A stretch of DNA of 37,078 nt from a virus (lineage: Duplodnaviria > Heunggongvirae > Uroviricota > Caudoviricetes), in the IMG/VR virus record IMGVR_UViG_2537562172_000008; one strand, given 5' to 3'. The notes under the pieces are model-generated. The model worked only from the letters and a program-made list of their open reading frames with translations. It had not been told where the DNA came from and ran no database searches. A program made the position numbers and the translations under genes. Of the stretch, positions 1 through 37,078 are shown in pieces (within the stretch, counting starts at the first letter, position 1; each line of letters opens with the position of its first letter).

Positions 1-102
1 GGAGGATCTATGCGCGGGATTTACAACCATGCTCAGTATCTCGATAAGCGCAGAGAAATGATGCAGTGGTGGGCGGACTGGCTTGATGAAAAGGTGGAGT
101 GA
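1..102 (+). CDS. tyrosine integrase, P4/CP4-57-like family, C-terminal fragment (gene begins left of the window)
   Basis: Frame 1 reads GGSMRGIYNHAQYLDKRREMMQWWADWLDEKVE then TGA at 100-102. This is the conserved C-terminal catalytic-tyrosine block (YNxAxY ... QWWAD) of P4-type integrases; same pattern as, but different sequence from, the C-terminus of the 35822-37078 integrase (RAVYNKAEY...LQQWAD). Absent from the ORF track because no start codon lies in the window. Confidence 0.6.
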   Translation, partial: GGSMRGIYNHAQYLDKRREMMQWWADWLDEKVE

Positions 103-290
103 TTTTTTGCTGCATTCGTTCTATAATGCACAACAATGTCATGTTGTTAATGCTGGTATTAGTTATCTTAACCAGTTTATTATTGATTATTTTCGTGTTT
201 GTAAACTTAACTGCGTGTTGCCCAACAAGATTCTCGCTAGGCAACATATGTTTTTACGAGGTTACTATGAACGAGTCATATTTAAACATC

Positions 291-1121
291 CTAGCTCTTG
301 GCGATTATATCGCGGCCACAATATTCCTTGTCTTCTTTTTCCTCATGATAGCGATTCCATCTTTTATATACAAAATTGGAAAATCTATTATCAGCAATAT
401 AAAAAGTAGAGAGAAATAAAATTATAGACGCCCAAAGGATTGGGAATGATAGATCCGGTATTGAAACAATCATTGCTGACATTAATGTATAAAAAAAGAT
501 CTTCCAGTATGCTGGAGATCTTTTTAGGATATTTAAAACACACCAAGAAAGCATACAAAAGCCAAAAACACCAGTTGCCGCAATAAGATTTAAGGCAAAG
601 CCTCCACCTCTTGTAATACCAAGACCAATACCTAGACCATACGTAGATACAATTGATTCAATCATTATCTTTGCTTCAGCGAATCTGACACTTCCTGAAT
701 CTGAATCAACTTTACCGGTTACAAAACCAGACACCATGCCAGATATTGCATCAAAAGCATCAGACGCCATTGCTATAACAAAAATTGCCATACTAATAAC
801 AATGGTGGAAAGTAGTATCTTTTTGCTTTTAATATTATAAGCATAAAATAATACCCCTCCACTTACGAATGCAATAAACCCAGTACCGGAAAAATTAAGA
901 AGTAAAGCAATACCAATTATTGCAGAAGAAATATACTTCCTGTTAAATATAGACAACCAGAAAGAAGCACCAAGAAATGCACCACAATATGAAGGTTCTG
1001 AAAATCCACCCTGCAGCCTAAAGTTACCATTCGCATCAGCAAACAGCGCTTGTTTGTATCCCACGTTATTAAATACTAGCTCTCGCAAGACATCATATGT
1101 CCCAGTCAACTTCATAGCCAT
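291..1121 (-). CDS. polytopic integral membrane protein; downstream part of a Wzy-like O-antigen polymerase candidate (lysogenic conversion)
   Basis: 276-aa ORF in strongly AT-rich DNA, where long ORFs are unlikely by chance; multiple hydrophobic helices; sits directly after the tailspike gene, the position of serotype-conversion genes in epsilon15-type phages. Family assignment is from memory and not verified. Confidence 0.5.
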   Translation of the reverse strand: MAMKLTGTYDVLRELVFNNVGYKQALFADANGNFRLQGGFSEPSYCGAFLGASFWLSIFNRKYISSAIIGIALLLNFSGTGFIAFVSGGVLFYAYNIKSKKILLSTIVISMAIFVIAMASDAFDAISGMVSGFVTGKVDSDSGSVRFAEAKIMIESIVSTYGLGIGLGITRGGGFALNLIAATGVFGFCMLSWCVLNILKRSPAYWKIFFYTLMSAMIVSIPDLSFPILWASIILFLSTFYIADNRFSNFVYKRWNRYHEEKEDKEYCGRDIIAKS

Positions 1122-1641
1122 CTACTAAAAAAACCAAAACAGATACTATGATCGCTGACTTAATGGCAATGTTTATTGCATCATTATTTGAAATATTTTT
1201 ACCATCAGACATGACAGCTATTGCTGTTAATATATTTAACAGTATAACAGCCAAATATATAAAAGACTGTACTGAAATGCTGACCCTCGCCCCGCCGTCT
1301 ATTGCAGAGTTATCATTGTTTATTACGATGGTGTCATAAAAAATACCAGGAGATATTATTGATATCAGAGCTGAATATATAAAAAAAACAACCATTAGCA
1401 GTGATATCTTTCTAACAAGACCGGTTGACAATCTATTAAATATGCTTCCAGAGTACCTAAATAGAACCAATAGTTCAGTCACAAGAAATAAAGATACACC
1501 CTTGTCAGAAAAATTAGCAAAGCTTGTTGCCTGAAATGTTGCCGACACAAAAATAGCCATAACAGCATATTTTTTACCTGCTGCTATGGCAACAATACTT
1601 ATTAATAGCCAAATAATACCAAAAGTAGTCATACCCAACAT
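1093..1641 (-). CDS. polytopic integral membrane protein; upstream part of the same Wzy-like candidate
   Basis: 182-aa hydrophobic ORF overlapping the next ORF by 29 nt in another frame; combined length of about 458 aa with 10-12 predicted helices fits Wzy-type polymerases. AT-rich like 291-1121. Confidence 0.5.
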   Translation of the reverse strand: MLGMTTFGIIWLLISIVAIAAGKKYAVMAIFVSATFQATSFANFSDKGVSLFLVTELLVLFRYSGSIFNRLSTGLVRKISLLMVVFFIYSALISIISPGIFYDTIVINNDNSAIDGGARVSISVQSFIYLAVILLNILTAIAVMSDGKNISNNDAINIAIKSAIIVSVLVFLVDGYEVDWDI

Positions 1642-1699
1642 CCGAAGAAAGATTTACTTGATCTTACCCTTTCTTCTATAATAATGGAATATGATTGCG

Positions 1700-34520: not shown

Positions 34521-35163
34521 GAAATACACACTAATCTATGCAGATCCACCTTGGGTATACCGGGACAAAGCCGCAGATGGTAATCGCGGTGCCGGCTTTA
34601 AATATCCTGTTATGAGTGTGCTGGATATCTGCCGCCTTCCTGTGTGGGATTTGGCCGGTGAAAACTGTCTGTTGGCCATGTGGTGGGTGCCAACACAACC
34701 ACTCGAAGCACTAAAAGTTGTTGAAGCCTGGGGATTCCGTCTGATGACCATGAAGGGCTTCACGTGGATAAAATGTGGTAGTCGACAACCAGATAAACTG
34801 GTTATGGGTATGGGGCACATGACTCGCGCCAATAGTGAAGATTGCCTGTTTGCAGTTAAGGGAAAACTACCTACGCGCATTAATGCAGGGATCGTTCAGT
34901 CATTTACCGCACCGCGGCTTGAGCATTCAAGAAAACCAGATGTCGTTCGTGAAAAACTTGTGCAATTGTTAGGCGATGTTTCTCGCATTGAACTGTTCGC
35001 CCGCCAGTCGTCTCATGGCTTCGATGTTTGGGGTAATCAGTGCGAAGACCCGGCAGTGCAACTACACCCTGGATACGCGTTGGATATTGGCGGATTAACA
35101 AATGCATTCAGCAATGCTCCGGTGTCACCAATAGACAACCAGGGGCGGGAGCGTGCAGCATGA
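34513..35163 (+). CDS. MT-A70-family N6-adenine DNA methyltransferase
   Basis: YADPPW (the DPPW catalytic motif) near the N-terminus with the surrounding MT-A70 fold pattern; ATG 34513 with GGGGTGG upstream is preferred over GTG 34501. Confidence 0.8.
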
Positions 35164-35819
35164 ACCTATATCAACGCATCAATGGCGCTGACTGGTGCAA
35201 TATCTTCGTCGTCGGCGATCTGCATGGGTGCTACACGCTGCTGATGAACGAACTCGACAAAGTTTCATTCGACCCGGCGCGCGATTTACTTATTTCCGTT
35301 GGTGACCTTGTTGACCGCGGCGCTGAAAACGTCGAATGCCTGGATTTGATTACTATGCCGTGGTTCCGAGCTGTTCGTGGCAACCATGAGCAGATGATGC
35401 TGGATGCACTGGTCAACGGCGGAAGTTTCGGACATTGGATGTCAAACGGCGGTGGATGGTGGCACCAACTTGATTCTGAGCAGGATGTGCAACTCAAATA
35501 CCTTCTGCCAAAGATTACCAACCTCCCGATGATTATCGAACTGGTTACCGGCAATAAGAAGGTCGTCATCTGTCACGCAGACTACCCGCACAACGAATAC
35601 GCATTCGATAAGCCAGTACCAGAAGAAATGGTGATATGGAATCGTGAGCGGGTTAGCGACGCGCAGGACGGTATTGTCTCGGAGATAACCGGTGCCGATT
35701 TGTTCATCTTCGGTCATACGCCAGCACATCACCCACTGGTGTATGCAAACCAGATGTACATCGACACCGGCGCAGTGTTCTGCGGAAATCTGACGCTTAC
35801 CAAAGTCCAGGAAGGATAG
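35160..35819 (+). CDS. Ser/Thr protein phosphatase, lambda PPase-like (calcineurin-type metallophosphoesterase)
   Basis: Motifs GDLHG, GDLVDRG and GNHE in canonical order. ORF track begins at 35040 but the ATG at 35160 overlaps the methyltransferase stop (ATGA) and gives the normal 219-aa length. Confidence 0.85.
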
Positions 35820-35821
35820 AA

Positions 35822-37078
35822 TTATTTATTACTGTCTTCCATCCACTTCTCAAACTTCGACGGGGAGAACGGAATCAGATCCGTATGCTCCCCGTCAATC
35901 CAGGAATCAATCATATCGGCCCACTGCTGCAACATGTAGGCGCGCTGTCTTGCGTATTCCGCTTTGTTATATACGGCGCGCACACCTTTCTGCTCATGTG
36001 CCAGAGCCTTTTCAATCCAGTCTGAAGGATAACCAGCCTCATGCAACAACGTACTGGCTGTACGGCGCATATCGTGTACGGTGAAATCCTGAATATGCTC
36101 ACCATCTTCATTTATTATTTTCACCGTTCTGTCGATCAGAGAGTTCAGCGCGGCATTAGATAATGGCTTCCGGAAATTGTAACGACCAGGAGCCAGATAT
36201 TCACTTCCACCAGCGCACATCTGTAACCCGACCAATATATCCTGTGCCTGTTTAGGCAGGTAAATAACGTGCGCCCGGCTTCCCTTCATGCGGTCTGAAG
36301 GAATTGTCCATGTCCATTTTTTAAAATCTATTTCATCCCACGTTGCATTGGTGAACTCGCCTTTACGAACCATAGTGATAAGCACCAGCTTTAAAGCCAT
36401 TTTCATAGTGCCCATAGCACCAATGGCATCCAGCGTGCGGAAGAACAGGCCAATTTCTTCTGGTGTCAGTGTTCGCTCTCGTGGTTTAAATATGGCGATA
36501 GACGAAGGTTTAATGTCAGCCGCAGGATTAAACAAACCATGACCACGGTCATTGGCGTGACGGTATACGCTGCTGATGATCTCCCTTGCCTGTACTGCTG
36601 TTGCCCGACCACCGCGTTCGACAATCCGGTCACACAAATCACGAACCATCGATGTGGTAATTTCAGTCATCATTTTGTTGCCAAGAACTGGAAGTATGTC
36701 ACGGTCGATCACCGCCTGCTTCATTGCGCGGGTACTGTCAGCCAGGATGACGTGTTTCATATAACTGTCGGTATGTACCGCAAACGTCTCGGCACCACGA
36801 ATCTTTTTGATACCGTCACGTTTAGCCGCAGCCGGTGACTGGCCTGCTTTAAGCAGCTTCTTTGCAGCAATCAGTTCTTCTCGCGCTTCTGCCAGGCTGA
36901 TACCGTCACGCCCATACTGCCCGATTACCAGTGTTTCGCGGCGACCGTTGATACGGTAGTCATAGCGAAACGAGACCGTGCCTGACGTAAGCACAGCTAC
37001 ATACAGCCCGTCACGATCGGAGACCTTGTACAGTTTGTCCTGCGGCTTGAGGTTTTTTAATTTTGTATCGGTAAGCAC
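35822..37078 (-). CDS. int: tyrosine integrase, P4-like family (start at or just beyond the window edge)
   Basis: 418 aa; N-terminal LTDTKLKNLKPQDKLYKVSDRDGLYVAV arm-binding domain pattern and C-terminal catalytic region (HDMRRTASTLL ... RAVYNKAEY); first in-window codon is GTG, so the true start is probably 1-3 codons to the right. Confidence 0.85.
   Translation of the reverse strand: MLTDTKLKNLKPQDKLYKVSDRDGLYVAVLTSGTVSFRYDYRINGRRETLVIGQYGRDGISLAEAREELIAAKKLLKAGQSPAAAKRDGIKKIRGAETFAVHTDSYMKHVILADSTRAMKQAVIDRDILPVLGNKMMTEITTSMVRDLCDRIVERGGRATAVQAREIISSVYRHANDRGHGLFNPAADIKPSSIAIFKPRERTLTPEEIGLFFRTLDAIGAMGTMKMALKLVLITMVRKGEFTNATWDEIDFKKWTWTIPSDRMKGSRAHVIYLPKQAQDILVGLQMCAGGSEYLAPGRYNFRKPLSNAALNSLIDRTVKIINEDGEHIQDFTVHDMRRTASTLLHEAGYPSDWIEKALAHEQKGVRAVYNKAEYARQRAYMLQQWADMIDSWIDGEHTDLIPFSPSKFEKWMEDSNK

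Follow-up and report, generated by a model that had tools for sequence, protein, structure and literature searches.

Temperate podoviruses of the genus Uetakevirus are known to integrate at the 3' end of the host gene guaA: a single att core of 17 nucleotides (nt), AATCATTCCCACTCAAT, has been published for ZX5, phiV10 and epsilon15, located 190 bp 5' of int and with attB at the guaA 3' end (PMC9782041), and insertion in guaA has also been reported for TL-2011b (PMC3293862). In phages with an IntS-type integrase, int has attP at its 5' end and is not coupled to the gene for the excisionase (PMC2951348). The tailspikes of Lederbergvirus and Uetakevirus exchange their C-terminal domain, with genus-specific anchors of ~205 amino acids (aa) in phiV10 and ~124 aa in HK620 (Pas et al. 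2023, PMC10408124). Here, we analyzed IMG/VR record IMGVR_UViG_2537562172_000008, a Caudoviricetes stretch of 37,078 nt that we refer to, at its full length, as the window. An earlier reading based on the sequence alone (the sequence-only reading) had noted two different P4-family integrases at opposite edges of this window, on opposite strands and both pointing inward, and had left open whether the left-hand one belongs to a neighboring island or is a second or vestigial integrase of the same element. Our comparisons with relatives make it very probable that the window holds one phiV10/epsilon15-like (Uetakevirus) prophage at the 3' end of guaA, present without its leftmost ~2.15 kb, and that its left-hand “integrase” is a non-functional relic and not an element boundary.

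We first consider the left edge, which had been described as the last 33 codons of an integrase gene. The sequence itself was described correctly: positions 1-102 of the plus strand translate to GGSMRGIYNHAQYLDKRREMMQWWADWLDEKVE followed by a stop codon, which is the C-terminus of IntS-type integrases (the full-length IntS of strain ETEC4073 ends in ...GGSVRGIYNHAQYLDKRREMMQWWADWFDEKVE). The implied gene cut off by the window did not hold up, as all relatives carry a relic of 123 nt at this place. In these relatives, homology to full-length intS is limited to intS nucleotides 1036-1158 of 1158, or 40 codons and a stop. What is left retains the box II His and the region of the catalytic Tyr, lacks the other ~345 codons, and amounts to ~10% of an integrase, too little for the “second integrase” that had been considered. 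Full-length IntS (385 aa) has the same three domains as the right-hand integrase, and in none of the relatives does the left-hand copy form a complete three-domain open reading frame (ORF); in VG48B2 and ETEC1716, it is annotated by the Prokaryotic Genome Annotation Pipeline as “integrase, incomplete, missing N-terminus”. Among P22-like phages, HK620, HF4s, CUS-3, Sf6 and others have int 3' ends that match the relic at 94-96% identity. The relic also has an allele of its own, with four lineage-specific substitutions, one of which (window position 10) creates an ATG and thereby a 30-aa ORF in gene callers. Window positions 1-103 are identical to the relic allele of sister prophages, while the best full-length intS among the matches listed from 5426 complete Escherichia coli genomes reaches 98.1%. 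The left fragment is therefore a dead 3' relic of an integrase gene of the IntS type (argW / KplE1 / HK620 / Sf6), an ordinary pseudogene fragment at a mosaic joint. The parent proteins of the two integrases are only 29% identical; they are different integrases of the same P4-like architecture, and a single integrase gene of a circularly permuted genome, already dismissed in the sequence-only reading, was rejected by us on the same grounds of strand and sequence.

Similar remnants were seen elsewhere. Phage Gally (Lederbergvirus; OV696608.1, L014) carries an 85-nt IntS 3' relic at 5001-5085, behind a lambda-type integrase, and ETEC4073 (L001) has a further IntS 3' relic of 84 nt at 761-844, beside an acyltransferase gene next to ybhB. 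These relics at other module joints show that the 3' end of int is a recurrent breakpoint.

The position of the relic at the very edge of the window has a technical origin. Because window positions 1-14081 match positions 1-14081 of draft contig AFEA01000013.1 (assembly GCA_000225225.2) base for base, at 100% identity, position 1 of the window is the physical end of a draft contig; the tailspike protein of the window was found on two records, one of them being this contig. The prophage lacks its leftmost ~2.15 kb in the window because the contig ends there, and the relic resembles an element boundary only because the contig ends inside it. The break was likely caused by a repeat of the intS 3' sequence elsewhere in the source genome. 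To see what lies further left, we turned to two near-identical relatives: the NCTC genome UGEZ01000005.1, which matches the window at 99.93% over 1-5686 and at 100% over 29019-36252, and VG48B2, which matches it at 99.0% over 1-4534 and at 99.5% over 4532-10435. To the left of the equivalent of window position 1, integrase homology extends for a further 21 nt in both; after a spacer of ~205 nt come two holin genes and the genes for a GH19 endolysin and a DUF2514 Rz-like protein, and finally yfgI. The relic-specific 30-aa ORF occurs on 21 contigs, and all 10 places listed from these read yfgI, Rz, endolysin, holins, relic and cassette in turn; the att core in them lies 2119-2151 nt to the left of the equivalent of window position 1. 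In other words, the relic is internal: with the lysis cassette on one side and the conversion gene on the other, it marks a junction of modules, not the end of the element. The junction between holin and relic is present in only 3 of the 5426 complete genomes (VG48B2, ETEC1716 and ETEC4090), the same three that carry the junction between anchor and neck of the tailspike described below. It is present in none of 50,697 phage records, among which only full-length IntS genes of P22-like phages or Uetakevirus holin flanks were matched, each separately.

The right-hand integrase is of a different kind. Its ORF is complete, with a GTG start codon that uses the very last bases of the window, and its product contains Arm-DNA-bind_3 (PF13356, E-value 3.9e-20), Phage_int_M (PF22022) and Phage_integrase (PF00589), all above the gathering scores, giving it the three-domain architecture of P4-like integrases; its phiV10 homolog is annotated as cd00801 INT_P4. 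With 98% identity to, and synteny with, the integrases of PAS61 and phiV10, it belongs to the prophage, as had been proposed from the sequence alone. The expectation that the att site lies just right of 37078 was also borne out, as relatives with an identical integrase have the core 191-207 nt to the right of the equivalent of position 37078. In every relative examined, the int start codon lies 190 nt from the end of the core, which overlaps the guaA stop codon. Consistently, guaA lies 192 nt upstream of the exact integrase protein in VG48B2 and in all seven places listed, which are relatives carrying the identical integrase and do not include the source contig. The core occurs once in K-12, where the site is empty, and twice around the prophage of VG48B2 (L002), at 4927, beside yfgI, and at 33510, overlapping the guaA stop codon. 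Across the places listed, all 10 left flanks and all 7 right flanks carried the core, so that in the relatives the prophage is bounded by direct repeats. The attP/attR core duplicates the last codons of guaA. Judged from the spacing in relatives, the right-hand core of the present prophage would fall at about 37269-37285, and the right-hand gene looks like the working, functional-looking integrase of the prophage, reading inward from the att site at guaA. In VG48B2, the phage has beside attP (33440-33466, compared with 4886-4912) its own copy of a hairpin similar to the terminator-like one downstream of guaA (aaaaaccctctgtaaaaacagagggtt); guaA therefore keeps its last codons as well as a terminator-like structure after integration.

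Targeting of tRNA genes is typical of P4-like integrases, not a defining feature of them. The att repeat had been expected to derive from a tRNA; the site is instead the 3' end of guaA, a protein-coding gene. P4-like integrases have attP beside the 5' end of int; in the relatives, the core lies 190 nt from the int start. The absence of a tRNA-derived direct repeat inside the window, noted before, was confirmed by several searches. The guaA att core is absent from the window (both cores fall outside it), as is any att-like direct repeat, the only notable repeats being the iterons at 28725-28873. The argW 3' end gave no matches in the window when allowing up to three mismatches, and the att core of IntS/KplE1, CTGCAGGGGACACCAT, gave none when allowing up to two.

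The bulk of the window is typical of the genus. It is collinear with phage vB_EcoP_PAS61 over seven blocks at 95-98% identity, which places it in Uetakevirus, and its right end is 98% identical to Uetakevirus phages that include vB_EcoP_PAS61, phiV10, ZX5 and TL-2011b. Parts of PAS61 are without a match in the window: the C-terminus of the tailspike together with the conversion gene, the attP region together with the lysis cassette, and several stretches in the early region and elsewhere (9482-12007, 14627-15078 and 26135-26465). In annotated relatives, the canonical Uetakevirus order is tailspike, O-antigen-modifying gene, membrane protein/holin, holin, endolysin, Rz, terminator, attP, int. 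Using the ends derived from relatives, the whole prophage would be ~39.4 kb, a size typical of the genus. The features of the window are collected in the table.

Table. Features of the window, with the evidence on which each assignment is based.
Feature	Position	Strand	Basis
In-window part (33 codons and stop) of the 123-nt IntS-type relic	1..102	+	Translation, intS homology; the remaining 21 nt lie left of the window
Non-coding spacer from a P22-like donor, not an att junction	103..290		98.8% contiguous with the ETEC4073 spacer between intS and the Wzy-like gene; no att core or tRNA 3' end
Wzy_C-like polytopic membrane protein, putative O-antigen polymerase or modification (seroconversion) gene	291..1641	-	Weak Wzy_C match, hydrophobic segments
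Receptor-binding (C-terminal) part of the tailspike, ~aa 273-793, variable part of the cassette	1700..3266	-	~99% to the ETEC4073 P22-type tailspike with head-binding domain
P22-type tailspike “neck”, aa ~219-272 of the chimera, corresponding to aa ~121-174 of P22-type tailspikes	3267..3423	-	Kept between cassette types; proposed right homology arm
Uetakevirus-type N-terminal anchor of the tailspike, aa 1-218	3424..4081	-	82-89% nt identity to phiV10/PAS61 tail fiber N-termini; many tail-fiber PHROGs match aa 1-225
Rest of the Uetakevirus prophage (virion, portal, terminase, tRNA-Arg, replication, immunity, RecT/exonuclease, AlpA-like regulator, methylase and phosphatase genes)	4082..35821		Collinearity with PAS61 and annotation of relatives
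The prophage's own integrase, phiV10 type, 418 aa, P4-like architecture	35822..37078	-	Pfam domains, 98% homologs, guaA adjacency in relatives

The cassette that follows the relic has a P22-like origin up to the neck of the tailspike. Window positions 1-3423 are 98.8% identical to a region of ETEC4073 in which a full-length intS is followed by the same spacer, a 446-aa gene that is intact, and a tailspike carrying a P22 head-binding domain; an int 3' end that is directly contiguous with a conversion gene and a tailspike was also seen at argW in VG48B2. The suggestion that a vestigial integrase travels with the AT-rich conversion module thus proved apt, as the relic is contiguous with the P22-like cassette. 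No att site is expected at 103-290, because the attP of IntS-type phages sits at the 5' end of int. The putative conversion gene gave a PF04932 (Wzy_C) match of 24.2 bits, below the gathering cutoff of 31.7; its product has ~10 hydrophobic segments and no match among the PHROGs. It is intact at 446 aa in relatives (L002, L004, L018, L021 and L024). In the window, and only there, it is split into 276 and 182 aa within 1124-1135 by three homopolymer-type differences close to each other, namely one extra A, A7 for A6, and A4 for A5; these frameshifts may be a draft-sequencing error or real pseudogenization. Further right, the neck is ~89% identical to P22-type tailspikes, and phrog_7173 (tail spike) matches at aa 216-263. 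A lineage-specific cluster of single-nucleotide polymorphisms (SNPs) at 3377-3423 marks the old tailspike junction.

A second type of cassette was found on the same backbone. Prophages of the ETEC1716 type match the window at 100% over 1-103 and at 99.2% from 3267 rightwards, with an interior unrelated to window positions 104-3266: it encodes a 763-aa tailspike domain of the pectate-lyase type and lacks a conversion gene. Over ~1.6 kb (L006 6083-7706), this interior shows no mismatch to the P22-like prophage at argW of VG48B2, which has a full-length intS, and the differences between the two are clustered in the relic and the neck that flank this match. The four relic alleles and the SNP cluster at 3377-3423 are common to both cassette types. 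Among phage records, no donor of the ETEC1716 receptor-binding domain was found; donor-like copies were present in E. coli chromosomes instead.

We propose that an ancestor of this Uetakevirus lineage captured a P22-like stretch that began within int and extended as far as the P22-type head-binding domain of the tailspike ends, and that this stretch took the place of the native conversion gene and receptor-binding domain; most simply, this was a single ancestral event of illegitimate recombination. In argW-integrating P22-like phages, the int 3' end is followed by an optional O-antigen-conversion gene and the tailspike, with no att site in between. The relic on the left and the tailspike neck on the right may then have served as homology arms for cassette exchange with P22-like prophages, with the interior later replaced by homologous recombination and at least two cassette types on one backbone as the presumed outcome. 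The step through the homology arms is suggested by sequence patterns. Whether the sublineage thus uses its imported 123 nt of the intS 3' end and the neck as a docking site, for swapping host-range and O-antigen-conversion cassettes with co-resident argW P22-like prophages across genera, is to our judgment evenly balanced.

Several explanations compete with this account. The left integrase might be an intact gene of a separate island or prophage (e.g., P22-like) abutting the phiV10-like prophage, with an att junction at about 103-290. The window cannot show the DNA to the left of position 1, full-length IntS is very common (~2400 of the 5426 E. coli genomes), and the spacer, Wzy-like gene and receptor-binding domain of ETEC4073 do follow a full-length intS. 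However, that tailspike has a P22 head-binding domain and is part of a lambda-att mosaic, whereas the tailspike of the window has a Uetakevirus anchor that is continuous with a Uetakevirus genome. In all 10 places listed (of the 21 contigs), holin genes and not an int body lie left of the relic, and the first 103 nt of the window are the relic allele, to which full-length intS comes no closer than the 98.1% given above for the matches listed. An IntS-type attP at the 5' end of int (PMC2951348) leaves none to be expected at the 3' end, and the window has no att core. In the near-identical relatives, the equivalent of 1-102 is part of a continuous phage genome that runs on leftward into lysis genes, with no att repeat near 103-300 and the left core ~2.15 kb left of position 1. 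This is the arrangement that the sequence-only reading had itself named as contradicting a neighboring island, which we now consider very unlikely. Even less credible is a dual integration specificity, for guaA as well as argW, conferred by a second complete and usable IntS. It has in its favor only that two integrase-like reading frames share one element; the 40 codons left in relatives lack the arm-binding and core-binding parts and most of the catalytic residues, CTGCAGGGGACACCAT is absent from the window, and every instance found is located at guaA/yfgI.

A more serious competitor is that the relic is a passive scar: the cassette types would have been captured independently, by illegitimate recombination, or would have formed in a P22-like context, and relic and neck would have no role in later exchange. 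Gene remnants are common at the module joints of temperate phages, as the IntS relics of Gally and ETEC4073 illustrate. On the other hand, both cassette types have nucleotide-identical outer junctions, the four shared derived SNPs of the relic and the shared SNP cluster of the neck, and the two interiors match different P22-like prophages, each at 99-100% identity. Independent illegitimate events are disfavored because they would not reproduce both junctions, and we see the passive scar as a possible but somewhat doubtful explanation. Some points do weigh against our own account of one prophage with an internal relic that serves for cassette exchange. For the source genome's own DNA left of position 1, the conclusion is drawn from relatives that are near-identical and from the alleles in bases 1-18 that are specific to the relic. 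With the junction in 0 of 50,697 isolated phage records and large deletions in several relatives, the sublineage may no longer be viable as a phage. The proposed arm step builds on two cassette types from few independent lineages, and no recombination was observed. A hybrid locus (GCA_012929155.1, JABATZ010000329.1, L023) carries over 4841-14093 yfgI, the Uetakevirus lysis genes and the relic, after which come a P22-type tailspike that has a head-binding domain of its own and the genes ant, arc, mnt, sieA and gp16. We rejected this locus as direct proof of recombination through the relic, since the switch lies within a 1.77-kb repeat shared by both prophage types and may reflect either a true recombinant or a short-read mis-join.

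Other observations concern the remainder of the prophage. The closest relatives in complete genomes are deleted versions: the VG48B2 prophage lacks the equivalents of window positions 10436-18750 and 24383-29015, and the NCTC strain lacks 5687-23621. The copy in the window is full-length relative to PAS61, and may thus be a more intact representative of the sublineage. A phage-borne tRNA-Arg (anticodon TCT) is located at 21121-21197 on the plus strand, between portal-side genes and the terminase, and is annotated in VG48B2 as well. Inside the replication-protein gene (28313-29128, minus strand), an iteron of ~19 nt, TCCCGTTTTTGGG..., occurs six times at 28725-28873 with a spacing of 18-45 nt; these iterons look like a replication origin embedded in the initiator gene, as in lambdoid phages.

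Overall, what was seen at this locus is ordinary phage mosaicism combined with a contig-end artifact. Its main value is practical, in that a contig end together with a gene remnant can mimic an element boundary or a two-integrase element, and in that the att expectation for this phage group is corrected from a tRNA to the 3' end of guaA. As a modest example, it also illustrates how short conserved stretches at module borders could channel the exchange of host-range cassettes between two genera of temperate podoviruses, and such bracketed receptor-binding and seroconversion cassettes bear on the prediction of phage serogroup specificity and on tailspike engineering.

Compared with the Uetakevirus phages at guaA (phiV10, epsilon15, vB_EcoP_ZX5, vB_EcoP_PAS61 and TL-2011b), the window has the same gene order, 95-98% nucleotide identity over most of its length, the same integrase and, in its relatives, the same att core attgagtgggaatgatt 190 nt 5' of int. 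The sublineage differs from them in its P22-type neck and receptor-binding domain, in having a Wzy-like gene in place of the O-acetyltransferase gene, and in the IntS relic between conversion gene and holins. With the IntS module of argW P22-like elements (KplE1/CPS-53, HK620, Sf6 and CUS-3), it shares the relic sequence at 94-96% and the way in which conversion gene and tailspike follow the int 3' end. However, only the last 40 codons of this IntS/TorI module are present, with neither the argW-derived core CTGCAGGGGACACCAT nor an int body, so the relic is a module fragment that does not itself count as a member. The junctions found here, at aa ~218 and aa ~120, fit the anchor limits of Pas et al. 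2023 (PMC10408124). Downstream of the tailspike gene, that study reports hardly any similarity or none within these genera, and an integrase remnant is not mentioned in it, whereas the sublineage of the window shares a conserved relic downstream. The family of the phage was known before, as were its integrase and att site, and to these the pattern of a bracketed cassette adds a small new detail.

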